Of a DNA stretch of 64,000 nucleotides, positions 1 to 20,471 are shown piece by piece. Every line of letters begins with the position of its first letter. Positions within the stretch are counted from its first letter, which is position 1. The stretch is taken from contig MU006105.1 in assembly GCA_010093705.1 (NCBI GenBank), positions 411,960-475,959 on the forward strand. Reading direction: 5' to 3'. Origin of the DNA: Patellaria atrata CBS 101060. Its lineage: Eukaryota. Under the pieces are notes generated by a model. The model did no database searches and was not told the DNA's origin. It saw only the letters and a list, made by a program, of their open reading frames with translations. Both the position numbers and the translations under genes were made by a program.

Positions 1-676
1 TCGTGACTTGATCCATAATTATATGAAAGATAGTCCTAAGTTTTCGCAAGTAAATATGACACTCGAGGGAGAGTTCTAAAGGGCGACATCATAGCAAGGT
101 ACAAAACCCGCAGTTTTCCTCCGATGAGGTAGAATGACATGCTCGGCAAAGTCTAAACCACATCCAGCCACCGAGTGCTAGTTTCCTAAATGAAGTTTCT
201 TAGTAATAGTTCTAACGGGAAGGAGCGGGCGCTCGTTAACGAGCAGACCCAGGAAAAAAAAGTTACCATATCAAAACAACTGACTTCAAGAAAATCAACT
301 TGACCAAGTGGAAATAATGAAGCGCGGAAATAACGAATCTGAAATCTGTGGTCCCACTTCTGATGTAAACGGATAGAATTATCATTGCAAGGAGTTAAAA
401 CTGGAAGCCCCTGAATTTGTTTGGCGTGGCTATGACACTTTCCTACAGCTTCAATCGTTTCTGAGTTATGGGACGATAATCCTCAATACTTCAGGATCTC
501 TCATTTTGTAAAATGTTTCGAGCGTATCGCATATACCATTCTACCGTGACTAACATATACAGTGTCAAATCTTAAGTCTATGGGAGTCAAAATAAGCTCT
601 TTATGTGAAGAACTACCAATGGATCTTATCTAATCTTTCCTTGTTTGATCTAGCTAGTTAGGCCAGTTGTGGCCAA

Positions 677-755
677 CAATACGTATCGATAAGGTATTAG
701 TATTCTCGGTATTTCATCAGTATTGTATCGAATACTGTAATACCTTAAAAATACT
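677..755. repeat. Left subterminal cluster of GTATT/AATAC pentamers of the hAT element
   Basis: About 8 copies in both orientations just inside the left TIR. hAT elements are known to carry short subterminal transposase-binding repeats. Confidence 0.7.
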
Positions 756-1063
756 CTTGGCATTCAAGGCTTTTCGATATTTTTTAGAACTTATCTAAAT
801 TATTCATACTTTTTTGAAGAATTTCATTGAGATAAAGATGCCTTCGTACGAAGCCATTACATGGCTATGAGTAATATGTACAGCTGTTCTAATGTGGAAG
901 GCACGAGGGCGTGCCTGCCTTCCCACCTGCCTACCTACCCACCTGCTAGTTTACATAAATATCTCTTCTTCTCTTTTGTTCTCCTCCTCGACCTCTGATT
1001 TAGCAACTCGAAGTGTAAGTGCTCAGCTCAAATCTATCGTACGAAGGCTAATCAGACTACAGC

Positions 1064-2052
1064 ATGGCAGATATGTAAGTACTTAATCATGGAAAAGTAG
1101 CTAAAGTCAAGAATAACATTAAAAAAACTCTTTTGTACAGAGAAGGGGAAAGAAGTACTCTTCCAATACTTACATAGTACACAAATTTCAACAGCTAACT
1201 GGCTGCTACATAAAAGAGAAATCAATGAAGAAGAACAAGAAATATTCTAAAAATGATAGCATACAGGGGAAAAACTAGATCGACATATAATGCAGGGAAT
1301 TGAAGAGCAAAGGATATAGTGGAGTTGGTTCAGTTTTTCTAATGCTTGGATTAGACTGCAAAGTTTGAACAACTGGGGAGCTTCAATCCTCAGACACTCT
1401 CACTAGACATATTATTACCCTAGAATAGGGATTTATGTAGATAGAAGAGTAGCGACATAGCCCAAGAGGCTGCATGCGCAGTATTGTAGATAATGCAATA
1501 CAATGGATTAAAAAAAAAAAAAAAAAGCAAGTAGTTCTCTACAACCCAGCGATCGCGCTTGCCGCTCAGGCAAACCGCAACCCAGTGCTACTCATAGCAC
1601 AGCAGCAACTGGCTCCGTGGTACCATAGCCCGCAGAGTAGAGCACTTCTGGCTGTCGGCGGGGGTGTTGATGTTGAGTTCGTACGGGGCTCCATCACGCC
1701 TCAGCAGATTGGATCTCATAGGCAGTCATATGTCAATGGGATCCTCATCCAGTCTCGTGGAGGTGATATTGATCCTTGTACGGCTTGTCGTACGAGAGGT
1801 TTTCGTCCCTTCCTTAGTTGTCGCCGCGCTGAGGTGCACTTTGGCGGAGCATGCGCCAACTGTAAATGGTGTGACCATGCAGCGCGCCGTTCCGTACGAG
1901 CTGGTGGACTAGATAAGCCTGCTTATGGAGACAGGCTGCTTGGACCTAGTCCAAGGGATGACAGAGCTGACGGTAGCGCCCCTGAGAATGCTATCACGCT
2001 GGGAGATGATGAGGAAGGGGCTACTCCCCAAAATGTTATAATCATTGTCTGA
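1064..2052 (+). pseudogene. DUF3716-like Cys-rich protein gene carried inside the hAT element, interrupted by a LINE fragment
   Basis: Removing 1082-1526 and one TSD copy restores ATG GCA GAT ATG CAA GTA GTT CTC TAC (MADMQVVLYNPAIAL...). The motif QSRG..DPCTAC..RPFLSC...FGGACANCKW resembles DUF3716. A probable 5'UTR intron (1015-1062, GTAAGT...GCTAAT...TACAG) ends 1 nt before the ATG. Confidence 0.7.
1082..1526 (+). mobile_element. 5'-truncated non-LTR retrotransposon (LINE-like) 3' end
   Basis: Ends in an A17 tail (1510-1526). Flanked by near-identical 7-bp repeats GTAAGTA (1075-1081) and GCAAGTA (1527-1533). Removing it restores the host reading frame. Confidence 0.7.
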
Positions 2053-2480
2053 GCAAAGCTTCGTACAAAGTTTTCTTTGGCGTTCTGATGTTCTGGCGTT
2101 CTGGTGTTCTGCTTTGCATAGCTATACAGGGCTGCTGGTAGCACTCAGACGTGATCTGTACCTTTATGTGGTGTCTAAGATCAGTAGCCATTAGGCGAAA
2201 CTAAGTAGATCATACGAATCTTTTAGTAAAACATCTGGTCTTGCCCAATGTTTGAGACATTCGGTATGTTCTAGCTCTCTTGAACTTAAGCGTGATCTTT
2301 CCCATGATACCGTACGACGAGCTGCTGAAAATACTCGTTCTGGTTCATCACTCATAGCTGGAATTGGGAGGATCTCAACTGCAAGTATAGATAGCCGTGG
2401 AAACCGAGCTCTTTGAGTATCAGTTAACCACCATTTAATAGGTGAAACGTCCCCAATATCGTACGGTTCTTGGTTAATAT

Positions 2481-2643
2481 TGTGAGCGGCCTCTAGTAAT
2501 TGTGTTCCAACTATCTAGTCCAGATGCTATCTACAATCAAGATGAAGGAGAAGTGAAGAGTCTGAGGGCAGGTTTGAGGGAAATATTACTGGCTGATCTT
2601 CGGATGTAGGGCATCCCATACCACTAGGCTCTAGCCTGGTACA
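2481..2643 (-). mobile_element. Solo LTR, family A (163 bp), nested in the hAT transposase
   Basis: TG...CA termini with 5-bp TSD AATAT (2476-2480, 2644-2648). Excision rejoins DEFEDYI/NQEPYD. An inverted copy lies at 15329-15492. The strand is given relative to that copy. Confidence 0.9.
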
Positions 2644-3361
2644 AATATAGTCTTCAAACTCATCACCACTCAAGGAAGTCTTATTAGACCACTCAATTTG
2701 ATTAAGAACACGTTCAAAATCAGTCATATTCTCAGATAGAGTCCTCTTTTCTTCGTACGACGCTGGTAATGGTACTAAATAGGTTTTATTCCAATCTTCC
2801 CAGTATAATTTAGCAAGCTTAATCATCTGCTCGGCTTTCCCTCTTTCTTTCTTCCAACCTTCCTTAATAATCTTCGTACGATAGTAAGGAGTAAAGATTG
2901 TCGCAAGAATATGGTAAGGTGAGGAAAGAAGTATAGAATAATACTTCTCGAAAAGCTGTAAAGCTTTATAAAGTTGAGGTCAAAAATCCTTCTTATAGGT
3001 ACGTTCATACTTTCCCCAAAGAATATTAAAGCCAAGCATCGTACGAAGTATCATATTAAATGATAGAGAATGGCCTTGATTTAGAAGCGTTGCCTCATGA
3101 AAGGGGCGAAGAATTAAATGGATCGTACGAAGCTTTTCCCAATCTTTATATGAAAGACAATCTTCTTTAAGATCACTATACTATCTCTTAATATATGAAT
3201 CGATTTCTTCTTCTTTACTTAGTGCAACATCTATCATAATATACCAGCTATTCCATCTCGTACGATTATTAAGTGGAATCATTCTCTCTGCTCTTGTAGT
3301 AAAGTCTTTTAAGTGACGTGTAGAGCTTCGAATATGAACCACAATATTATGAAGCTTTCCA

Positions 3362-3534
3362 TGTCACGGGTTAGACACGATAGGTATAAGTGCCTTGGAT
3401 GATCCAGCGGCTTAGTCATACTGTACTTTAGTAGAACAGTATATGCTGTCTCAACACTTTCTTTCCTTAAGTTTAAGCTTCATGCATATGTAGCAATATA
3501 CCTTTCAGCTTCCATCTAAGGTTGAGCCTTGACA
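3362..3534. mobile_element. Solo LTR, family B (173 bp), nested in the hAT transposase
   Basis: TGTCA...TGACA termini with 5-bp TSD TTCCA (3357-3361) / TTCTA (3535-3539). Excision restores RTVGSLGKLHNIVVHIR. Confidence 0.85.
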
Positions 3535-4712
3535 TTCTAAGTGACCCTACCGTACGAAAGGTTGACTGTCTCTGTTTTCTTAAGTCGGCTTGTCTTATCT
3601 CATAGTCCTCTGTTGATACTTCATGTGTAAGACTATTTAGCCCTTGAGATTCAGTTTATTCTTCAGCGTCGTACATCTCAATCAAGTCTAAATCTATCGT
3701 CCCAGCAAAGAGAAAGGTTTGTACAATCAAGTTGATAATATGGCCTATACATCGGATTCTTTGAGATGAATGGTTCCATACTAGATCTTACTCACTTGAA
3801 GATATTGACTAAGCAGCTGGCAAAGCTTATCATTCGTGGAAGCATTATCACCAATAATAGTACCAAGCCTTCGTACGATACCATAGTCTTGAAGAACTGG
3901 AAGGAGTACTTCAAGTTGTTCACTAGATGAATAGTTTCCTACTTCTTTAAGACCAAGTAATACTCTTTGAGGTACCTCTTCCGTACGATCAATATAATGC
4001 GCGACAATACTAAGGAGAAGTATCCGATTTGGGGAAGTCTAGATATCAAGTGAGATATGGATATTTGCAGGCGCAGATTGAAGTTACTTTCGTACGAGAT
4101 CTTTTTGGGAAGAGAAAAAAGCCGTTATTCTTTTTGAAATTGTTGAGTGTGAAGGTGGAATAAAGCTCGTTGACTGCGGGTTAAGAACTAGGCAAAATGC
4201 ACGAAACTCAGGCCATTCGACTATACGGAAGGGGAGTCTTCGTACGGTAATTAATTGAGATATTGCTTTATCAATAATATCTTGATTAAGAATCTTTTGT
4301 AACACGAGCTGATCTGGCTCATTCAATCCAGTATGCTCGCTTGACCGGTAAAAATCTAATAGTCTTTGGAAAGTGTCTTCCCCTATCTTCGTACGAGGCT
4401 CGTCTAGAGATATATTATGTATGTTAAGAAGATGCTTCTTGAAGTTTGTACTAATTATTGTACTATACGAACACTCGTATTTACACTCACAGATAGGCTT
4501 ATTTTGATTGTTTCGTGGGGGGTCTCCGGGGGTTTGTATACGCGTATGTTTCCAAAGAAGGGATCTTATTGGTCGTACGGCGGAAGATGATGGTTCTGAG
4601 GTAAAACTTATTATTGAATCAATTTCAAAAGCCATTATTGAGGAGTAGAGACCACTTTATCGTATATACGAAGAGTAAAATTTTGAATTGTGGGTTTAAT
4701 AATATTAAGCGA

Positions 4713-4793
4713 AGTATTATTAGGGTATTATTAAGGTATTTATCGATATCGATCCAATACAATACTAATCGGTATTTGATACTATTTAATACT
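4713..4793. repeat. Right subterminal cluster of GTATT/AATAC pentamers of the hAT element
   Basis: About 7 copies in both orientations just inside the right TIR, mirroring the left cluster. Confidence 0.7.
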
Positions 4794-4956
4794 GGAATTT
4801 TATTGGCCACACTGAGTTAGGCGCTACTGTTGATGCACAGACCATCTAAGTTGTCACCTTGAACCTTCACATCTCGACATTCACGAAACGCGCACTTTTT
4901 GCAGACTTGTGCTATTTGTTTACCCCACCAAATCTCGTATATTATAGCTTTTCGTC

Positions 4957-6590
4957 ATGGCCGCTGCAGTTTCTCCCTCAAACTCACCACGCCTTCCTAG
5001 CCCTCCACCAATGGCTGAAGATCAACTAGGCCCTAAGTCTCCAATGGCTGTGTCTACCGAAGAACATAATAAGCTACTGGGCGGTCCTCTCAATATCGAT
5101 GCTGGAGCTTCAAGAAGAATACGACCAGGCACAAAATCAGCGGACATATGCGAAGGCCCACCTCTGGTTGATATGGTAGAGGTAAGAAGAAACATCATCC
5201 CCTTCTCAACCAGAAAACGCTAATCCATCACTCATAGATCGAATCAGCATTTCAACTCTCCGAACATATTAAAGCCGTGCATGAGACTATTACACACCCC
5301 TCTTCCTCAGATAACACCGTTCCTGTCGATCGCGCAAGCGCGATACGCCTAGCCCACGCGCCAGATGGAGTAAACAAGAGCTTGTGGTTATATGAATTGT
5401 GTAGGTTTCTGACACAGAAAGCGAATATCATGGTGACTGCTCTATTTTCGGATGATCCACCATGTTCTGCACAGACCTGCTCTGAGATGCGCGCTTCGGA
5501 ATGGCAATACCTCTGCGCTGTCCACGATCCTCCAAAATCATGCTGTGCTATTGATTACTGCTGTCACACTCTCGATTGGGCCGCTCAAATCCTCACATCT
5601 GCGAAATCTTTTCCCAGTAGATTAGCGTTAGGTGGAGATTACAATACGGTAAATATGCAAGTTCGACACATCACGAATATCTTCAGGCGCGTATATCGCA
5701 TATTCGCACATGCATGGTTCCAGCATCGTGAGGTTTTCTGGAAAGTAGAGAATAGAACTGGACTCTATGTCTTATTCAAGAGCGTATGTGATGCTTACCA
5801 GCTCATTCCTGAGGATAACTACACGATCCCTCCTGAAGCTGAGGGAATCGAGGTTCCATCTGAGGAAGACCAGGTTCCAGTGATCCCGAAGAGCGAGCAA
5901 GAACCACAAATTGAACATGGAAAACCTGAACTGACACCTGCTGGCAATGACATTGTTGTCTCTGGACATACAACTAAGAGGCATAGGCACACTCCCTCCA
6001 GTAGTAACGTTGTTGCAACAGTTATCGAGGAAAACGAGGAAGAAGAACATGAAGAGAAGCGACCAGCAGCACAAACAGTGCAGACATCGGTACATGTTTC
6101 AGAATCCACGCTTCCCGATTCAGAGGTATTATCAGACACACAAGAAGCCAGTGAGCGTTCACAGTCTTATCCGAAGGAAGAATCAAAATCTCCAGAAATT
6201 GAGCTTGAAACTAGTGAAGTACCCACTGAGAACATAGAAGATAGGTCTACTGCAATTGAGGAAAGTACTCAAATTGAACCACTCAAGGAAGAAGCGCCTG
6301 AGGTCAAAGCTGATTCTGGCGAAGACTCTGCGGTCAATCTCGAGTTAGAACCCAATGCAGAAAAAGAATCGACCTCTACCGTTTCCCTAGAAGCTGCTTC
6401 CGAGTCTACGGTCAAAGAGAATACTGGAGACTCAGAGCCGAAGGTAGACGATTCGACCGTAGAGCAAAAGACCTCAGAGGAACCAAAGGAGACATCTGTA
6501 AAGGAAACAGCTGAAAAGAAAGAACATATTATGACTCCTGACGCTAGCGCCACAAGTACTGAAGAAGCTAGCAAGACAGTAACTGACTGA
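4957..6590 (+). CDS. MOB3: Mob1/phocein family protein (STRIPAK subunit MOB3)
   Basis: Exons 4957-5181 and 5238-6590, intron GTAAGA...CTAAT...CATAG. Phocein motifs WLYELCRF, YLCAVH, CCAIDYCCHTLD, FPSR, IFRRVYRIFAHAWFQHR, then a long acidic tail. Confidence 0.92.
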
Positions 6591-11434: not shown

Positions 11435-14026
11435 GTGTTCGGACAAGGACCACAGCGAAGTACAGTACAATCGCTTCGCTATGTATTTCTATTGGTCCTA
11501 ATAGTATCTCAGCGAATCCAACACAAACATGGCTTGCAGAGACTTCCATGCACACCGCTGCCAATCTGGAACTGTCAGGCGAAGGTCAGTCTCGTTCGGT
11601 TTGACAATATTAGCATTATTGCTACCTCCAGTATTCACTCGAAATCTTCGCATGACATCCAAGTCGAAGTCGAAAGATTTGGAGTTCTGGTGCACGAGAA
11701 GCCTCAAGCACAAATAGACGATACTAAAGAAGACATGCCGTGGCATCCCGCTTGTAAATCGAATGCCCCTCTCTCCTTTCCTAGTTTAGACGACTATCAT
11801 TCAGGTTTAAGAGACAGCGAGACTCTTCGGAATAGTGCTTGGTCCAGCAGTCAAATTTACTCACCAGATGAAATCTCCCGAATGATTGAAGAATTATCTC
11901 GCCGTTCTGAGCATCATCAGCAGCATGATCTTTGTAATAGGTGCAACAAGATTCCTTTCTATAACATACCTTCAAGGCACTTTGGTCGAACTTCCGGAAA
12001 AATACTCATAACACTTGGAATCATCTCTCCAAAGGATCTAATGTCACCCTGTGCATTTTGTGCTTTCATTGCGGCGGTACGATTTTCGGCTCGCCCGCAA
12101 CAACCTGTTCCAGAAGACCGAATTTTTGTTCTCTACGGGTTTGAAACGCAAACCTCCTCCAAGTCATTTCTTCCCTCACTTGCTATTATACCTTGCCCAG
12201 AGCAGCCAGTTGGGTATATTGCAGAACAAATTGAATTACATCCTTTTGTGAACCCCTTTTTGGTTCAGGATAATCGCCCCTATATCCAGGAAATGATAGA
12301 CATATTTGGCTACGTAGACGTTATAAATGCATCAAATGAAGACGTTCGAAATATTTCGGAATGCATTATTCAACGTGATACTGTCAACACCGGATGGATT
12401 GAAATATGGTTGGAACAATGTCGTCTTAAACACAAAGGAACATGTGCTAAAAAAGAAACAATTTGTCTCCCCTTTCTTCGGCTTATTGATTGCGAAACAC
12501 GAGTGATAAAAGGGCCATCTAGTGACGAGACCCCCAAGTATTTGGCTCTAAGTTATGTTTGGGGCGCAATGACAACTTCTCAGTCCTCTGGGGGTTCGAG
12601 ATCAATCATCAATGGTGCAAAACTGGGTAAGTTGCCACCGGTTGGCTCATTACCAAAAGTAATTGAAGATGCTATCAGCATTACAAAAACGCTGGGGCAT
12701 AGATATTTATGGATCGACCAATACTGCATAGACCAGGAGGATGGGGATGACATTAAAGTAAACCTTTCATCTATGCATCTTATCTACGGCACCGCCTCTA
12801 TTACCTTGATTGCAGCTGCTGGTAAAGATCAAACTTTTGGATTACCGGGAGTTGGACAAAGACTCAGAAGTTTCCAACCCGTGACTCGAATTGGGAAACT
12901 CGGGTTTATCTCCTTAGGCCCAGCACCCAAACGCTGGATTGACACGTCAAAGTACATGACAAGAGGCTGGACATATCAGGAAGGATTATTCTCTCGTCGA
13001 AAGATATTTTTTACGGAGTATCAAGTCTACGTTGAGTGTCGATCTGCGCATTGTAGTGAAGCACTTGTGTATTTGAGAAGTTGCTGGAACACGAACTCGA
13101 TCGAAAGCATATTTCCCGATCCATGCAGTGACCCATTGCGTCTGATCGAGGAGTATACACAAAGGTCTCTCTCGTATGACTCTGATGCGCTCAATGGGTT
13201 ACTGGGCGTTCTAGGCATGCTGAAATCATTGGAACTACCCATTCTGCATCACTGGGGAATTCCAGCAGTCTTGAACTCACTCTGGCCTAGATTAGATCCA
13301 TCTAAAACTCGGCGCGAATGCAACCCCGTCGCAGGGTTTATCAAAGGGCTCTCGTGGTTTCACACTCAGACTGCAATGCGGAGAGAAGCATTCCCGAGCT
13401 GGTCATGGGCTGGCTGGAGGGGAGGTATTAGATATTATAGTTGGAATCCAACGCTGCAAAATTTATCTGACCTACCAATCTTCATAGAGACTGAAAGCGG
13501 ATCCTTGGTCGATTGGAATCAGTATTACAATGATTATGATAAAACGCGGGTGGAGTATAACGATAGTGATCTGTCTCCAGTGTTAACTATAGATGTGGAC
13601 ACAATCGATCTATATTTCATACCCAAAGGAGAATCAAATCATACTTCGATACATTGGTACGTGAATTTACCATGTCTCTCCGGGGATCTTCAATCGGCCC
13701 CGAAGCATAAGTTTTACCCTTCAATACAGCTTCAAGAGGACCGCCCCTTCCATTCCGGGGAAAAGAACTGGACCGGCATCTTACTTGATAATGATCAACT
13801 GCTGAGCGGGAATCGAGTCGTACCCCCAATCCTAGTCGTAGACCTAAGCGAAGAGGTTGCGATTAGGGTCGGGATCGTTCTTTACTATCATAGCCTTCCG
13901 GAGCTTACGACCAGAGTAAATGATTACCATATTGCTCTTAGCAGTTCAGGGGGGAAAGACCTAGTACTCTCTTCGGAGAAGAACTCCCATAAGTATGTAA
14001 CCCGGAGAAGAATCCGTCTTGGTTAG
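11435..14026 (+). CDS. HET-domain (heterokaryon incompatibility) protein
   Basis: RLIDC, YLALSYVWG, LPKVIEDAI, LGHRYLWIDQYCIDQ, MHLIYG, TRGWTYQE and FPSWSWAGW. The true start is probably a downstream ATG. Confidence 0.92.
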   Translation: MFGQGPQRSTVQSLRYVFLLVLIVSQRIQHKHGLQRLPCTPLPIWNCQAKVSLVRFDNISIIATSSIHSKSSHDIQVEVERFGVLVHEKPQAQIDDTKEDMPWHPACKSNAPLSFPSLDDYHSGLRDSETLRNSAWSSSQIYSPDEISRMIEELSRRSEHHQQHDLCNRCNKIPFYNIPSRHFGRTSGKILITLGIISPKDLMSPCAFCAFIAAVRFSARPQQPVPEDRIFVLYGFETQTSSKSFLPSLAIIPCPEQPVGYIAEQIELHPFVNPFLVQDNRPYIQEMIDIFGYVDVINASNEDVRNISECIIQRDTVNTGWIEIWLEQCRLKHKGTCAKKETICLPFLRLIDCETRVIKGPSSDETPKYLALSYVWGAMTTSQSSGGSRSIINGAKLGKLPPVGSLPKVIEDAISITKTLGHRYLWIDQYCIDQEDGDDIKVNLSSMHLIYGTASITLIAAAGKDQTFGLPGVGQRLRSFQPVTRIGKLGFISLGPAPKRWIDTSKYMTRGWTYQEGLFSRRKIFFTEYQVYVECRSAHCSEALVYLRSCWNTNSIESIFPDPCSDPLRLIEEYTQRSLSYDSDALNGLLGVLGMLKSLELPILHHWGIPAVLNSLWPRLDPSKTRRECNPVAGFIKGLSWFHTQTAMRREAFPSWSWAGWRGGIRYYSWNPTLQNLSDLPIFIETESGSLVDWNQYYNDYDKTRVEYNDSDLSPVLTIDVDTIDLYFIPKGESNHTSIHWYVNLPCLSGDLQSAPKHKFYPSIQLQEDRPFHSGEKNWTGILLDNDQLLSGNRVVPPILVVDLSEEVAIRVGIVLYYHSLPELTTRVNDYHIALSSSGGKDLVLSSEKNSHKYVTRRRIRLG

Positions 14027-14350
14027 GGGTATTTCTCCGGAGTTTACGACTTCTAAGGGCGTAGAGACTGTTTAGAAATCTCTATTCACATTGAGGGCTA
14101 ATTCTCCCTGATGTGTAGATGGGGCTTCAAGGGATTCTTTCTTTACAGTCTTGCTGTTACCATCTTGTCCAAATTTCCTGATAGGTTTTTGTGTTTCTTT
14201 TCTTAATTTTATATTACTACATTTCATTGGAGAAGCTTCGTTTTTTCTTTCTTTAAACACTCTCTTTTCAACTTCACTCCTTCTTTCTATGTGATAACCA
14301 ACAATATTATCATTCTTCATATTTATATACAAGTCAATGCTATGCGTTCT

Positions 14351-15137
14351 TTAAGACATCATGTCGTAATCTGAGATGCGGAGCTCCTGATCGGGATCGA
14401 CGTTCTCCACATTCTGGGGCGTTTTTAGACTCTCGGTCTCTAGGCATGGTATATCTAAAGTGTCCCAATGGACACAAATCGAGGGCTTCGAATGTGACGA
14501 AACAACATGAGTTTCTGCTATTTGTGGATAAAGATATTGTAAAACACACTTTTTCCCAATTTCCTGACGGACAAAAATTGCTCCATCATACATTTTCCCA
14601 TACACTCCTATGACGATGTTAGTCCATAAAATCTTTCCACTCATTGTTATCCTCATCGAGAATGCAACTTCGCCAGTACAGACTAATAGAACTTAAATCA
14701 CCACATAATTGAGCGCTTTTCATACACCGCCGAGATAAAGCGACAACATACTGATGTTCTCTGAAACCCCCTATCCGACCAGGTTCCATATGGTAGTGGT
14801 GAGTCTCCCTTGTTAGTAATCATACGGTAACCGTGTCTTCGATTAGGGATGTCTTCTAGCTGGTAGGACACAACTTCCATTTTGGGTCTATATAGTACTC
14901 GGGAACGTGCAAAAGGAAATCGAGGCGCTCAATGAAAGTAAGCCTTCTCACAGCGGATATGCAGTCGATGTGGAGATGGGAGCGCAGATCCCTGAATGTC
15001 TGAGAGAGGAGCATCTTACAATACAAGGAGAGTGAGTTTAGGATAAGTGAGAAGACTTCCAAGGGTAGGTTGAGCAGTCCTGAATTCTGTTTGGGCAATT
15101 CCAAATTCTGTTCTGAAACCCGTTTGAGTGATTTCAT
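14351..15137 (-). pseudogene. Degenerate F-box protein gene
   Basis: F-box-like LLNLPLEVFSLILNSL...LSQTFRDLR. The downstream part is broken into three short ORFs with no clear introns. Confidence 0.55.
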
Positions 15138-15328
15138 GCCCTATTGTTAGATGGTGGAGCTATCGGGGTGTTGATTCTTGTGGTAACCAGGGGTAGTGAG
15201 CTAGTCGCTTATACCACCACAATTACGGTATCGTCGTAACCTAGGGTTTCTAAACTAACATAACACTATCTTTAGTTCTTGTGTTGGTGCTATTTTCGTT
15301 ATTTTCTGAGACATAGATTTCATACTGT

Positions 15329-15492
15329 TGTAACAGGCTAGAGCCTAGTGGTATGAGCGCGCCCTGCATCCGAAGATCAGCCAGTAATATTTTCCTCAAA
15401 CCTGCCTTTAGACTCTTCTCTTCTTCTTTATCTTGATTGTAGATAGCATCTGGACTAGATAGTTGGAACACAATTACTAGAGGCCGCTCACA
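15329..15492 (+). mobile_element. Solo LTR, family A, second copy (164 bp)
   Basis: TGTAAC...CTCACA with 5-bp TSD ACTGT (15324-15328, 15493-15497). Roughly 90% identical by eye to the reverse complement of 2481-2643. Confidence 0.92.
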
Positions 15493-17534
15493 ACTGTTCC
15501 GTCCGTTTTAGTACACACCTGCAGTATATAACAGCTAGATAGAACCTCTCTTTTGAGAATCGAGCGACATATTCCATGCACCTGCAGATCCAGTTTATCT
15601 AATACCTATTCAAACGATTCTGAGCCTCGATCAAGTAATCTGAGTAATTTCGTGTCCCTTACAAGTAGGATTGTGTCCTGATTTAAAGGACGTCTCGAAC
15701 CGCTCATATATATCCAAATCCGAGCCCTCCATAAGGAAGATTGATTTGTCTAGAAGGAATTTCCAGGTCTGCGTAGTTCCATCAAATGCTAAGGTCCGTC
15801 CACGTAGTCTCGAACTTGACTAAAGTATCCTTCCTCTTAATAAGATAAACAATTTGACTATTAGTTGGGGTAAGGACATATTTGAGCGTTGTGAAAGACA
15901 TTATTAAAGATATAACTACGTACGTCCTATAAATACTTTTACAGTGCAGGATAGATGCTGCAGAGTAGTACTTTTTTTCAGTACGCTCTTTGATTTTGAG
16001 AATGTTATTGAAAATATATCTTTTGGGTTTTCAGATTAGTGGGAAGATAAATTTTTTTAAAGTAATTTATATGATAACACCAGAGCCTTACCGTGGTTCA
16101 AGTCACTTTGTCAATTCATAATGGAGCCGTGGTTGGAACATTGTTATATCTATACCTTCTTAACACAATGGTCAAATACACGAGACTTTCGATTAAAAAG
16201 TGCGATCACGTAACCATTATGAAGATTTCAAATTGTATTAACGTTAAACATTCTACGAATAGTATACCTAAATTTATACTGTTTTCACCTATCTGCTCCT
16301 CTAGCTTTTCTTTTATCATGCGTTTCTATCATCAATACAAGGTCCTGTTTCTCGCTGTCCTTGAGTTTGAATTGTTCCATTTCCTAACAGCTCTCTTCTT
16401 CTCCCAAAAGATTATTTACCCTTCTCAGTGGCAGCAAATATCCAACCCCTGATTACGGCATTAGGATTTCCCACTTTCAAATCACCCTATACTAGAGTTA
16501 ACATGTAAATTCTCGTGCTTATATGAACTCTACTAAATCAATCCCCATTCTCCATTCTCTACCCTCGTACTATAACCCTCAACTCTGCATAGTTGAAAAG
16601 CTCTACCAGTCTCGGCCGCAATCTTAACTATGCCCTACATCTCTGCTTTATCCTCCCTTACTTTCCACTCTGTAATAACTCGTTTTCCCGTCTACATATT
16701 CTCCTACAGATCTTCTTCTCCTATCAGGCCCTCTCTCTATGAACTCCCTACCCAACACCTCCTCTCCGACCAAAATCCCCTGGCCTCCTCACCTCACCCA
16801 CCTCATCTTCCCCAACCTCTCTACAGTTCCCATAACTCAGCAGACACTTACCAAATATCCCCCCAAAACACCTGCACCTCTCTGCGACACTATACCAACC
16901 CTCCAACCCTCGCGTCCCTTCATCGTCCCTCTCCAGACCCAAAACCAAACCCCCTTTCCCACCCCGCCAACACCTCCAATCCCCACCCCAATCAGCGCCA
17001 CCATTCACCCCGGGTGCGGTGGTCTCCTACAACCGCTTCATATTCCATGATCATCTCTATTGACACATAGATTCTGACCCTCGTCTCCCGTATCCCGCCA
17101 AAACACCACTACAACCCTAACTATCCCCAACTCTCAAAATTATAAACCAAACACCTAACACTACCATCACCTCGCCCAACGAAGCGACAGCGGACCTGCA
17201 AATTAGAAATTCCACAATCAAATGGATCACTATTCCTTGCATTCCCTATAATAGACTTAAGTTTAAAGAGGATTCGTCGGGATAGCAAGATTCACGATCA
17301 AGGACAGGGTATCAGAAGATGATGAAGTAGAGAGGTCCCTGTTCCTGTTCCGCCTGTTCCTGTTCCGGGGAGAGATATATACAAAACACATAATAGCATG
17401 AGAAAAGCCGCTTTCGCATCCCAAGTATCCCAAACAAGCGCAAAGACAATTCCACCCGTCCCTCCCAACCCAACCCAGTATTCCGAACAAAAGACCCATC
17501 CGAATCCCATCTCCGCCACTGCCCTCACCATCCC

Positions 17535-20471
17535 TCAACCACCCACAACCATTAACTCCGCGCCCACACCGGCAACATAACACACAACCCCGGCGCCAAG
17601 CACCAACCTAACAATCCTCCACGCCCTCCTTCTCCCCGCCTCTCCCTCCCCTCTGACCCCCGAAGACACCTCCTCAGTCCTCTTAACCCCCTCCCTATAA
17701 GGCGGCGGCGGCGGCAGAAAAGAATCATAATTCACGAACCCAGTCGGGGACGCGAAATTTCCAATTGGCGGGAGATGGAGAGGATATGCCGTCGTGCCGT
17801 CGATCGGGTTGAGGTATTTCTTCCTGTGCTGCACTTCACGGGCTACGTCCTGGACCTCGTCCGCCGCCTTCTCCGCTTCTCGTGCTTGCTTCTCCTTGTC
17901 GGTTTGGTTTTCGAGGTTGGGAGTTGGCTCAACAGGGGGAACCCATGATTCGGGTATGCGGAGCACGAGTTGGTGTTTCCCGGCCCAGATGATCTCGAAC
18001 GGGACGTCGGGGAGGCGTTTGATGAATACCTCCGGCTTGGCGAATTGCTGGAGCGCTTTTACTAGGTCGGTTGGTGTGGTTGGGTGGTGGGCCCTTGAGA
18101 ACTTGCGGGTGTTGCTCGTGCTGATGGCGCCGCTTTCGGGGTCGACGGTGATGCGGTAGACGTTGTAAGGATGGGATTTGGGCCTCGTGGGTTTATCTTC
18201 TATTTGAGTTGGAGCGGTAGTTGTTGGCGTGGTTGCTGATTGTACGAAAGTTTGCGTGGGTTCTGTAGGGTTGGTTGTGGAGGTTACTCCTTTCGGTTGT
18301 GGTTCAATTAATGCTCGATTCGTAGGTTCGGGCTCAGGGGCTTTGCTTGTAAATGTTGAAGCCTCCTTAATGTTTTGGTCCCGCAAATGAAGTGCCTTTA
18401 TTTTAACGAGAAACTCGTCAACCTTTTCTCTTGAGAGCGGTTCATTATCCACCTGTTCTACCATTTTACTCACGTTCTTCGTCAAATTTTCACTCATCTT
18501 CCCCAAGGAGTCTGCTTCGGTAGAGATATGCGGTGATTTCTCTCTAGATGCTAGATTCCGACTTTCAGCTCGCATCCGTTCCTCGTCCTCTCGGGTTCCT
18601 GAAAACCATTGCATATTTGGAAGTGCATAGGCCTGCGTATCAAATCGCTTCCAATTAGGATTAATGTCAGGTCTGTTCGTAACTGGACTATCATTTGAAA
18701 TTTCAGTATCTGCCGCTTTCTGCGGTTCGATCACAACGGTCTCAAGTTCCACATCCTCAGGCGGTTCCTGATGTGCCTTCTCAGATACCCTTTCAAGGGC
18801 TCCTCTTCTCTCGATCTTCTCTGATTCCGTCTCCTTCATATCTCTGGAAGTCTTCATCGATGCTCTAACATCACTGGGACGTAATAGATCGATATCATCC
18901 TCCCGTAGCTGTAGTTTTGGTCTTATATTGGTCTCTGCTTTACTACTAGCTGTAGAGTTCGTTCTGTCGAGACTAGTTTCAAGTACTGTATTCGAGTTCT
19001 CCCTGTTAATAGGAATGTTCAATCTTTGATGAACGAATTTGACAAGTGGACTCGGTTCTTTGCGGGTGGGAGGTTTGGATATCTCCTTTTCTTCGAGGGG
19101 AGCCTCGGATTTCTCCTTCTGTCTTTGCTCGTAGTCTTTATAAGCAAGCTCTTCTAACTCCTTAAACATAGACCATATAGACTGGTTACCATCGTCTTTG
19201 ACCGTGGGTACCTCAGTAGTTTCGGTCTTTGTAGAAGTTGTATAGCTTTCGTGATCTTCCATACCAGAGGAGACAGGTTCATAGTACCGCTCATTCATTT
19301 CATGAACATCCTTTATCTCGAAAGATTTATCGGAATTGGATTTTGTGTCCTTCTTTTGAGCTTGGACATCTGCCAGAGCTTCCGCTATTCCAGGAGTAAT
19401 GGAATTCGTCTGCCCTGAAGCTTGTGACGCATTGACTTTATCCGAATTCGGCTCCTCGACAAGCTGACTTGATTGTGTTTCGGATCTTTTGAGCTCATAA
19501 TAGTGATCCCTTATTTTGAAGTACCATGGTTCCAACTCTTTCTCGCACTGCCAAGTTCCTCTTTGAGTACGCTCAGCTGCTAATAACCATTTCTTCATTG
19601 CGGGTAAATCTTCAGATTCTATTATCTTTGGTGCATCTTCCATCAGGGACCTTGTGAGAGGATCTATGGTGTGTTTCGGTCTCAAAGGTTTGACGGGGAT
19701 GTCGATGGCTTCATTAGAGGTTTTCATTTCTGGTGCAGAGTCTATTTCAGGAGTGTCGGTACTCTTAATCACCATTCGGTTACTGACGGGATCGTATTCA
19801 AAACCATCAAGTCCAGATGATGAATCTTGGGTGGCACTTTGTGCCTGTCCAGTAGCCTTAACTCGAGGGTCCTCTTTTTCATTGTCACTATTCCTTCTCT
19901 CCACAGAGTCTTGATCAATCTTCTTATCCACTTCCACAGCTTTCCTCTTTCCCTCATTGAAGCTTGCCATCTGACTAATCCAACTTCCCAGTCCAAACGC
20001 CCCTAAGCCCTTCGTCTCCAACCGCTTTTCCCACTCCTCGCATTTCTTATTTAAATCATACGCCCGTTGTCTCCACAACTTTTCTCTCTTACTCAACTCA
20101 AAAGGAAAGTCCTTATCCCCATCTTCCCCTTTCGTACCCGGGACATAGGTTCCCGGCTTTATCCACCACTGGCTGGTCCTCCCACCTGGGCCGCACGCAT
20201 ACCAACCCCATCCTCGAGGTCCTCGCGGTTCTCGACGCTGTTCAAGTGCTTCTCGTAATTTAGTTTCGTCTCTACGGACGGATTTCTCGATGCGGGAGGT
20301 GAGGCGACTGAGGGGATCAATGTGACGGTTCCACCAAGAGAAGGAGCGAGCCTGGCGCCGAGGCAAGATGACAGTGAGAGAAGATCTGGGATGTAAGGTG
20401 GAAGTTCGGGAGATGCGGATGAGAGATGAGGAGACTTTGGTTCTAGCGCGAGGGAGATGGGAGACCGTCAT
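17535..20471 (-). CDS. Fungal hypothetical protein (978 aa) with a C-terminal membrane anchor, possibly mitochondrial
   Basis: Long intronless ORF. The R/S-rich, acid-free N-terminus resembles a presequence. Motifs YDPVSNRM, DDIDLLRPSDVRA and NPIDGT...GNFASPTGFVNY. Terminal hydrophobic segment. Confidence 0.8.
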   Translation of the reverse strand: MTVSHLPRARTKVSSSLIRISRTSTLHPRSSLTVILPRRQARSFSWWNRHIDPLSRLTSRIEKSVRRDETKLREALEQRREPRGPRGWGWYACGPGGRTSQWWIKPGTYVPGTKGEDGDKDFPFELSKREKLWRQRAYDLNKKCEEWEKRLETKGLGAFGLGSWISQMASFNEGKRKAVEVDKKIDQDSVERRNSDNEKEDPRVKATGQAQSATQDSSSGLDGFEYDPVSNRMVIKSTDTPEIDSAPEMKTSNEAIDIPVKPLRPKHTIDPLTRSLMEDAPKIIESEDLPAMKKWLLAAERTQRGTWQCEKELEPWYFKIRDHYYELKRSETQSSQLVEEPNSDKVNASQASGQTNSITPGIAEALADVQAQKKDTKSNSDKSFEIKDVHEMNERYYEPVSSGMEDHESYTTSTKTETTEVPTVKDDGNQSIWSMFKELEELAYKDYEQRQKEKSEAPLEEKEISKPPTRKEPSPLVKFVHQRLNIPINRENSNTVLETSLDRTNSTASSKAETNIRPKLQLREDDIDLLRPSDVRASMKTSRDMKETESEKIERRGALERVSEKAHQEPPEDVELETVVIEPQKAADTEISNDSPVTNRPDINPNWKRFDTQAYALPNMQWFSGTREDEERMRAESRNLASREKSPHISTEADSLGKMSENLTKNVSKMVEQVDNEPLSREKVDEFLVKIKALHLRDQNIKEASTFTSKAPEPEPTNRALIEPQPKGVTSTTNPTEPTQTFVQSATTPTTTAPTQIEDKPTRPKSHPYNVYRITVDPESGAISTSNTRKFSRAHHPTTPTDLVKALQQFAKPEVFIKRLPDVPFEIIWAGKHQLVLRIPESWVPPVEPTPNLENQTDKEKQAREAEKAADEVQDVAREVQHRKKYLNPIDGTTAYPLHLPPIGNFASPTGFVNYDSFLPPPPPYREGVKRTEEVSSGVRGEGEAGRRRAWRIVRLVLGAGVVCYVAGVGAELMVVGG

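Follow-up and report, generated by a model that had tools for sequence, protein, structure and literature searches.

The stretch of DNA analysed here, referred to as the window, comprises 64,000 nt of Patellaria atrata CBS 101060 (contig MU006105.1, positions 411,960 to 475,959, forward strand). At positions 664-4814 it contains a DNA transposon of the hAT superfamily, 4151 bp long, in which the transposase gene is accompanied by a second gene encoding a DUF3716 protein. The observation of a two-gene hAT with dense internal CGTACG, made in an earlier note on this DNA, is confirmed. The window element is a dead copy of a widespread fungal two-gene hAT lineage, in which the palindrome recurs at nucleosome-scale intervals, roughly once per 150 bp, in the body of the element only, leaving the terminal ~150-290 bp free. 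Codon shuffles indicate that selection acts directly on the DNA to maintain the sites. These data suggest that a DNA reader, either encoded by the transposon or hijacked by it, keeps the element active, and the DUF3716 protein is the best, albeit tentative, candidate for this reader.

The two-gene element in the window

In the 64-kb window, CGTACG occurs 29 times, as compared with 6.15 +/- 2.48 times in 100 dinucleotide shuffles, none of which reaches 29. The element, with its 4151 bp, accounts for nineteen of these occurrences, leaving 10 for the 59,849 bp outside it. No other 6-mer is as enriched in the element (26-fold), and all 19 element sites are preceded by a pyrimidine and followed by a purine (YCGTACGR). 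The 8-mer TCGTACGA is enriched 106-fold and is present in exact form at 11 of the 19 sites.

The boundaries given in the earlier note stand: the element is flanked by an 8-bp target-site duplication (TSD), the length typical of the hAT superfamily, and begins at both ends with short terminal inverted repeats (TIRs) of the CAG type, where hAT elements have CAG or TAG. The first 181 bp on the left and the last 235 bp on the right are free of the motif. The features of the ends, the motif field and the second gene are the following (positions in the window):

656-663: left TSD, AGTTAGGC, identical to the 8-mer at 4815-4822
664-676, plus strand: left TIR, CAGTTGTGGCCAA, pairing with the reverse complement of the right end except for one indel
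664-863: left subterminal zone; carries GGTATT/AATACC and TATCGA repeats, CGTACG starting only at 845
845, 1038, 1680, 1789, 1893, 2311, 2460, 2754, 2875, 3040: YCGTACGR field, sites 1-10
3124, 3259, 3551, 3872, 3982, 4091, 4241, 4390, 4574: YCGTACGR field, sites 11-19; the field spans 845-4579
2062, 2211, 3670: in-context CGTACG sites, each decayed by one transition
1016-1062, plus strand: putative intron in the 5' untranslated region (5'UTR) of the DUF3716 gene, GTAAGT...CTAAT...CAG, with CGTACG beside the branch point, as read from the sequence
1066-2052, plus strand: DUF3716 gene; start ATGGCAGATATG at 1066, resuming at 1528 (QVVLYN...), stop at 2050-2052
4615-4814: right subterminal zone and TIR; the last CGTACG is 235 bp from the end
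4803-4814 (reverse complement): right TIR, CAGTGTGGCCAA; TIR of 12/13 nt with one indel
4815-4822: right TSD, AGTTAGGC, identical to the 8-mer at 656-663

The DUF3716 gene is convergent with the minus-strand transposase. Its open reading frame (ORF) at 1474-2052 matches PF12511 (DUF3716) with E=6.4e-10 and 39.2 bits, above the gathering score of 22 bits, which bears out the family assignment that had been proposed. The second gene that had been placed at 1064-2052 is a real convergent DUF3716 gene, but it is broken after codon 4 by a 453-bp insertion; the paralog P0001, 95% identical to the window protein, reads MADMQVVLYN uninterrupted. In total, four paralogous DUF3716 gene models were found on four P. 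atrata scaffolds, two of them intact (95% and 80% identical) and two frameshifted. The 5'UTR intron that the earlier note considered probable has putative counterparts at the same place, with CGTACGAAGCTAA or TATACGAAGCTAAT, in three metagenome loci described below (L002, L005, and L008). The window shares the CGTACG next to the branch point with L005 and L008; in L002 this site has decayed.

The DUF3716 protein carries a Cys/His cluster and, as had been claimed, an acidic tail: in the window copy the net charge is -6 for the tail and +7 for the core. The Cys cluster is likewise there, but the window copy lacks the full Cys/His set (C-x2-C ... C ... H ... C-x2-C ... H ... C), which is kept in L002, in the gene model P0002, and in most relatives. 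The last conserved Cys is replaced by Arg in the window copy and in P0001, and a Cys stands six residues earlier. At window 1870-1900, the protein reads KWCDHAARRSVR (also in P0001), versus KWRDHAARCSVR in P0002 and all other relatives. Read from the sequence, this Arg/Cys swap may have cost the protein a zinc ligand, or it may be a shift that is compensated, and the window copy may be impaired while the family is intact elsewhere. The stop-free state of the DUF3716 ORF was considered as a sign of selection on the window copy, and rejected (P=0.22).

When its stops are read through, the window transposase matches Dimer_Tnp_hAT (PF05699; E=1.3e-13, 50.9 bits, cut-off 21.4), and the blocks DIWTSPN, RIRCIGHIINL, and NRTRWNSW are visible in its translation. 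For an N-terminal zinc finger, only zf-H2C2_5 was detected, at 16.6 bits and below its cut-off of 27. The copy is dead: it has three nested insertions, a 1-bp deletion, and five premature transposase stops. Contigs from sequencing runs of the source organism (X1 and X2, probably DNA) and of a second organism (X3), aligned to 300-5300, locate this damage:

2191-4635, minus strand: hAT transposase pseudogene, 698 codons after removal of insertions, 5 premature stops
1082-1534, plus strand: nested insertion of 453 bp with an A17 end, between GTAAGTA and GCAAGTA
2477-2644: nested 168-bp repeat resembling a miniature inverted-repeat transposable element (MITE); X1, X2, and X3 contigs join 2475/2476 to 2644/2645
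3361-3538: nested 178-bp repeat; joint 3360 to 3539 in X1, X2, and X3
3789, minus strand: 1-bp deletion relative to other copies; all aligned contigs have an extra G behind 3789, and the frame shifts

At the first of these insertions, a contig of another copy joins 1081 directly to GTTCTCTATAACCC (1535 onward), and word depth in 1082-1534 is 12,700-18,700 versus 322 in the flank (run X1). With its A17 end, the insertion looks like a short interspersed nuclear element or otherwise retroposed. One copy of its 7-bp flanking repeat is altered C>T. An Rfam scan of 600-4900, this insertion included, gave no match at E<=0.1, and hence no recognised RNA-gene head. The MITE-like repeat has a second copy, 92.8% identical, 11 kb away at 15328-15493. 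In X1, word depth sums to 44,717 in its bin and to 86,210 in that of the 178-bp repeat, the deepest of the stretch, each versus 322 in the flank. About 25 in-frame stops were considered as a trace of heavy repeat-induced point mutation (RIP). This was rejected, as most of these stops fall within two of the nested repeats or past the 1-bp deletion. Together, the three nested insertions (799 bp) contain no CGTACG and act as an internal control.

Other copies, conservation, and spacing of the sites

Other copies of the element were reached through metagenome loci and through the sequencing runs. A scan of metagenome contigs with a DUF3716 alignment gave eight loci, six of which (L002-L007) contain a DUF3716 gene followed by a convergent hAT transposase. 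By tblastn, transposase segments are 34-46% identical to the window in L002-L005, and 29-44% in L006 and L007. L002 and L004 are the same locus, and L003, 99.3% identical, is another copy in different flanking sequence. The TIR CAGCGTGGTTTTCAATA is common to the loci L002-L007; it matches over 17/17 positions in L002:9597-12932, and two contigs start exactly at this TIR. The L002 element occupies this interval (3.3 kb, with perfect 17-bp TIRs), and encodes a transposase with a 485-codon first exon (Dimer_Tnp_hAT, E=9e-16, 57.9 bits; zf-BED, 20.8 bits, barely at the cut-off of 20.6) and a DUF3716 protein of 176 residues (E=1.7e-15, 57.1 bits). The window transposase is 35-46% identical to it in tblastn segments, and 42% overall by alignment. 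The L002 copy looks intact, and both L002 and L003 are unmutated and apparently active. In L006, the element is flanked on either side by the TSD GGACACAG, the left one having an extra base.

In the sequencing runs, the family is clearly multi-copy, and other copies carry the DUF3716 gene. Word depth over the element is several-fold to tens-fold above the flanks (in X1, 3575-4004 summed over the DUF3716 bins versus 322 in the flank), such sums not being copy numbers. A 453-bp contig of X1 bridges the DUF3716 gene and the transposase end (1769-2223), and a 1321-bp contig of the second organism bridges 1747-3237 without the 168-bp repeat. The earlier note had made the absence of the gene from other copies one of the points on which its proposal would fall; these contigs and six of the eight loci carry the gene.

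Gene order, orientation, and the putative 5' intron are the same in the second lineage, in which transposase segments are 34-46% identical to the window. Such an identical two-gene design, at 42% transposase identity, supports the view, already expressed in the earlier note, that the element family has long carried the DUF3716 gene and did not capture it recently. The jump in GC content between the DUF3716 ORF (0.55) and the transposase (0.39) was considered as a sign of recent capture and rejected, since the intact L002 is alike (0.62 vs 0.43). The element occurs in different fungal classes with an unchanged motif, and transposase relatives fall into at least 368 protein clusters at E<=1e-10. 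The two-gene lineage is thus, on sequence comparison, supported as an old and widespread one forming a large clade.

The density of the palindrome is shared by these relatives. L002 contains 17 CGTACG in 3336 bp, versus 2 in the other 13,603 bp of the locus, and L005 contains 20 in 3281 bp; overall, unmutated relatives have 17-20 sites that are ~147-168 bp apart. Exact TCGTACGA is found at 12 of the 17 sites in L002 and at 14 of the 20 in L005. Two unrelated or distant transposases served as controls. The first belongs to a second hAT of the L002 contig (L002:15391-16938, 2.5 kb away; tblastn segments 36-50% identical to the first L002 transposase), which has no CGTACG in its two ORFs. The other is the pogo transposase of locus L001, with 1 CGTACG in 1881 bp.

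In synonymous-codon shuffles, which preserve the protein and its codon usage, the L002 transposase ORF is expected to contain 0.51 +/- 0.68 sites. Nine are observed, a number reached in 0 of 5000 shuffles. The same holds for the C-terminal part of this transposase (0.38 vs 3 observed, p=0.002) and for the window DUF3716 ORF (0.42 vs 3 observed, p=0.002). Both genes carry the motif at a similar density, as had been stated: 3 sites in 522 bp for the window DUF3716 gene and 14 in ~2.1 kb for the transposase, the nested insertions being removed.

Across lineages, the sites span the promoter, the intron, both coding regions, and the 3' spacer. Six transposase sites (of 14 in the window and 12 in L002) are at the same codons, which encode ITVRRL, D[LI]VRK, NRTRWNS, LRT, [YR]RT, and ARRT; the rest are displaced by tens of codons. 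Two sites of the DUF3716 gene are at homologous positions in both lineages. Among five lineages, its CSVR site is intact in all five, its EFVRG site in four (the fifth being off by one transition), and the site right after the stop codon in three. Individual sites thus appear to turn over while their spacing is kept. NR precedes TRWNS in 98 of the best 120 transposase relatives, a protein-level hint only that the motif habit is clade-wide.

Two loci have been altered by RIP. L006, an 87% identical copy, has 357 of 419 differences that are C>T or G>A in CpA/CpG contexts. Its lack of any CGTACG was considered as a counter-example and rejected, since all 17 sites are changed by C>T/G>A transitions only. 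In L007, which also has a 5.6-kb insertion between the two genes, 13 of 17 sites are changed by transitions, 3 are intact, and 1 is changed otherwise. Five further sites occur in L005; at three of these positions, L002 carries variants differing by one or two transitions, which implies ~22 sites in the ancestor of that group.

The spacing of the sites is far more even than that of random placements. In L005, the gaps have a mean of 146.9 bp (standard deviation, sd, 33.5; coefficient of variation, CV, 0.23), and 0 of 20,000 random placements are as even; in L002, the CV is 0.48 (p=0.001). In the window, once the insertions are removed, the mean gap is 162.8 bp (CV 0.51, p=0.0012), and no smallest gap as large as the 84 bp observed arose in 50,000 random placements. 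Three of the five long gaps separating window sites are explained by insertions, and two hold decayed sites (2062, 2211, and 3670). When these three decayed sites are added, the mean becomes 139.5 bp (sd 34.2, CV 0.24). Both adjustments, for insertions and for decayed sites, were made post hoc; the raw window positions give the same minimum-gap result (p about 1e-4). Motif-free ends are also found elsewhere, extending over 195 and 288 bp in L005 and over 146 bp at the right end of L002, and the 499-bp motif-free gap on the left of L002 contains decayed sites.

To the left of the L005 element, L005:157-1653 consists of long inverted ends (157-307 / 1466-1653) around tandem arrays of GCGTTCGT[GA][CT]AG-like units, with 3 CGTACG and many one-step variants. 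This unit may be a motif-array element.

These counts bear on the idea that the motif is a functionless by-product of mutation bias, RIP leftovers, codon usage, or VR/RT/SYE protein constraint. The hexamer contains neither CpA nor TpG, so it survives CpA-directed RIP, and several sites encode conserved VR or RT dipeptides. Set against these points are the full site set of the unmutated L002 and L003, copies with different flanks; the excess of nine sites over 0.51 in synonymous shuffles; the sites in the intron, the promoter, and the 3' spacer; the evenness of the spacing; and the lack of such density in unrelated transposases of the same contigs and in the nested insertions. Such an explanation is hardly credible, and is already contradicted by counts, shuffles, and spacing.

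Candidate readers of the palindrome

Two classes of repeats can be distinguished in these elements. Those at the ends vary from one lineage to the other: the window element has six GGTATT within its terminal 2x200 bp and none internally, and L002 has GCCAAT (11 at the ends, 1 internal) and CCAATA (9 at the ends, 0 internal). The internal palindrome, by contrast, is identical in both lineages. Presumably, the subterminal repeats are lineage-specific candidate binding sites of the transposase. Between the window and L002, the N-terminal 100 aa of the transposase are 34% identical, and the DUF3716 core (residues 20-130), with 66% identity, is the best-conserved protein part.

It is thus very unlikely that the internal palindromes are bound by the transposase, via its BED or another domain, as landing pads or regulators, with DUF3716 as an unrelated passenger. 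hAT transposases such as those of Ac and Hermes do bind short repeated motifs by N-terminal BED-type domains, and L002 has a zf-BED match. Yet the end-confined repeats change by lineage in step with the 34%-identical N-terminus while the internal motif stays the same, and the terminal 146-288 bp, the region in which the transposase has to act, are free of the palindromes.

The best candidate reader of YCGTACGR is the DUF3716 protein, a proposal that falls somewhat short of an even chance on the sequence comparisons at hand. Its core is basic (+8, 5 His), Cys/His-rich, and about 110 residues long, with eight conserved Cys/His. Its tail (-6) ends in a conserved hydrophobic motif: in most relatives, the C-terminus after the acidic run reads G-[ST]-A-x-x-[NP]-x-[IL]-[VL]-[VL], which we take to resemble an acidic activation motif or a SUMO-interaction motif. 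AlphaFold2, applied to 29 sequences, predicts one compact domain (predicted local distance difference test, pLDDT, 86-96 at ~residues 20-130) and a disordered tail. In the proposed mechanism, the protein would read YCGTACGR sequence-specifically. Bound along the whole element, it would act through its acidic tail as an element-encoded activator or anti-silencing factor, keeping the chromatin of the element open and its genes expressed. A spacing of about one site per nucleosome is what such a protein coat would need. This activator or anti-silencing role, argued by analogy, is somewhat less likely than the role of DUF3716 as reader.

DUF3716 is a large family (1275 representatives match a profile of this subfamily at E<=1e-3, and 110 still do at E<=1e-30) and is found on other transposons. 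In Zymoseptoria tritici, ZtREP9 is reported to be an active multi-copy IS3EU transposon with the DUF3716 genes REP9-1 and REP9-2 beside its transposase (PMC8232023). In four gene models, the DUF3716 module follows Crypton-type NDC10_II / GCR1_C domains, and belongs to the subfamily at 62-67% identity: the Histoplasma models P0150-P0152 have a 67%-identical piece after NDC10_II and GCR1_C, and the Blastomyces model P0015 has GCR1_C and a full DUF3716. Such Crypton-like carriers are possibly a third transposon superfamily with DUF3716, and gene-model fusion of neighbours is possible as well. The presence of the module on transposons of different chemistries argues for a host-facing rather than a catalytic role. 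Regarding DNA binding, Neurospora crassa NCU05718 is reportedly the ortholog of PSC58, a DUF3716 protein of Fusarium graminearum (PMC10776026), and recombinant NCU05718, which has no annotated DNA-binding domain, binds double-stranded TTAGGG repeats directly (PMC4650311).

A different reader has to be considered as well, namely a host transcription factor, the same that activates cyp51 through TCGTACGA and possibly of the Upc2/SRE kind. If so, the sites would drive or protect expression of the element, and DUF3716 would have another task, for example to modulate this factor or a chromatin partner. The cyp51 promoter of Pseudocercospora fijiensis has, at -122, a 19-bp element whose core is TCGTACGA, and up to six tandem copies of this element raise expression at least three-fold, as shown by promoter swap (PMC6637983). 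The palindromic core was described as 'most likely a transcriptional enhancer', with the factor stated to be unknown by the authors (PMC8252799). Similarly, in Cercospora beticola, a genome-wide association study identified a single-nucleotide polymorphism at -124 of CYP51, which changes CCGTACGA (sensitive) to TCGTACGA (resistant), and UPC2/ECM22-type sites are predicted there by JASPAR (bioRxiv 10.1101/2020.11.12.379818). No later paper naming the factor was found among the matches listed. Element lineages from different fungal classes, moreover, share an unchanged motif, which is what reading by a conserved host factor would demand. However, a promoter needs upstream sites, and not sites spaced ~150 bp apart through two coding regions at a cost in codons and amino acids. 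The element also has its own conserved basic zinc-cluster protein, whose role would be left unexplained, and the 59.8 kb of surrounding host DNA show no enrichment of CGTACG (10 sites, vs about 6 per 64 kb in shuffles). The host factor is a strong rival all the same, although less likely than the DUF3716 protein.

Several points weigh against DUF3716 as the reader. With TCGTACGA documented as an enhancer core in cyp51 promoters of two Dothideomycetes, a host reader without DUF3716 is possible. The predicted core matches no solved structure, so a DNA-binding fold is not established: in Foldseek against the PDB the best E-value is 6, a VIA fold search retrieved 0 of 48,161 chains at Z>=2, and the DUF3716 profile has no match among PDB sequences at E<=10. 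A search of the ESM Atlas with the protein gave DUF3716 clusters only. The link between NCU05718 and DUF3716 is a reported orthology, and for the anti-silencing role the argument is purely one of analogy. RIP destroyed 17 of 17 sites in L006 and 13 of 17 in L007; the system is therefore no protection against RIP. Co-occurrence of gene and motif is known from two deep lineages plus fragments, and two loci, L001 and L008, have a DUF3716 gene and sites with no hAT transposase in the available sequence; tblastn with the window and L002 transposases revealed no hAT remnant in them at E<=1. In L001, a 3-kb contig, a pogo/Tc5 transposase ORF (DDE_1, HTH_Tnp_Tc5; L001:978-2861) is directly downstream of the DUF3716 gene, and is either a nested insertion or another DUF3716 carrier. 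In L008, a DUF3716 pseudogene that has kept its CGTACG sites (L008:9800-11000) is followed by ~500 bp of motif-bearing spacer and no transposase, and adjoins a NACHT-WD40 (NLR-like) gene (L008:13142-16571).

The host-factor and DUF3716 readings can merge: the cyp51 factor could itself be a DUF3716 protein. In its broadest and improbable form, DUF3716 would be a transposon-borne family of zinc-cluster activators or anti-silencers common to hAT, IS3EU (REP9), and Crypton-like elements, which reads YCGTACGR about once per nucleosome in hAT and is also the factor at the cyp51 TCGTACGA enhancer, wiring transposon regulators into host control.

Significance and comparison with known systems

A palindrome at nucleosome-scale intervals in coding DNA is direct evidence for selection on whole-body reading, and not on reading of the ends alone. 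The finding gives a concrete functional hypothesis for DUF3716, a domain that recurs as transposon cargo, and a candidate explanation for the unexplained cyp51 enhancer palindrome in crop-pathogenic fungi. Given the size of the lineage (at least 368 transposase clusters), any mechanism would apply widely. To our knowledge, no hAT with a spaced internal palindrome field has been described. A search of the main texts of the literature likewise found no such two-gene motif-field hAT among the matches listed.

With the one-gene hATs Ac, hobo, Hermes, and Restless, the window lineage shares an 8-bp TSD, CAG/TAG TIRs, subterminal repeats, and a transposase with the hAT dimerisation domain, to which L002 adds a borderline BED match; it differs from them by the addition of a second conserved gene and of the internal spaced-palindrome field. 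In PIF/Harbinger (Myb-like protein) and En/Spm (TnpA), a second element protein also binds short repeated motifs of the element, a property that is only proposed for the hAT. Their motifs, however, are subterminal and serve transposase recruitment, whereas the terminal ~150-290 bp of the hAT are palindrome-free.

The closest functional parallel to the mechanism proposed here is with VANDAL21 of Arabidopsis, whose VANC protein reportedly binds its motif and causes demethylation. Both are DNA transposons with an extra gene and a short motif repeated in their own body, dispersed in the present case over 19 sites in the window, 17 in L002, and 20 in L005; by analogy, the hAT would also have a protein of its own that recognises its own motif and keeps the element active. 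The two differ in superfamily (Mutator-like element vs hAT) and in kingdom (plant vs fungal), and we know of no sequence relation between VANC and DUF3716. In addition, VANC motifs cluster in non-coding and tandem-repeat regions, whereas the hAT palindromes are evenly spaced at ~150 bp through both coding regions.

The cyp51 promoters contain the identical 8-bp palindrome, TCGTACGA, in Dothideomycetes, and more or better copies of it accompany higher transcription (PMC6637983, PMC8252799, bioRxiv 10.1101/2020.11.12.379818). It is present there in 1-6 copies in a host promoter, versus a transposon-wide field in the hAT, and no link to DUF3716 or hAT is drawn in the available portions of these papers.

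ZtREP9 differs from the window element by its IS3EU integrase-type transposase, its size (7.9 kb, four genes), its 43-bp TIRs, and its 6-bp TSD, and a dispersed motif is not reported in the part of that work consulted (PMC8232023). According to its authors, the similarity of REP9 to other fungi is at the level of the DUF3716 domain only. Changed expression of REP9-1 alters a host trait, and RIPed copies of REP9 are present in sister species (PMC8232023). Like the window element, ZtREP9 is a DNA transposon of an ascomycete that carries DUF3716 as cargo and has RIPed relatives (PMC8232023).

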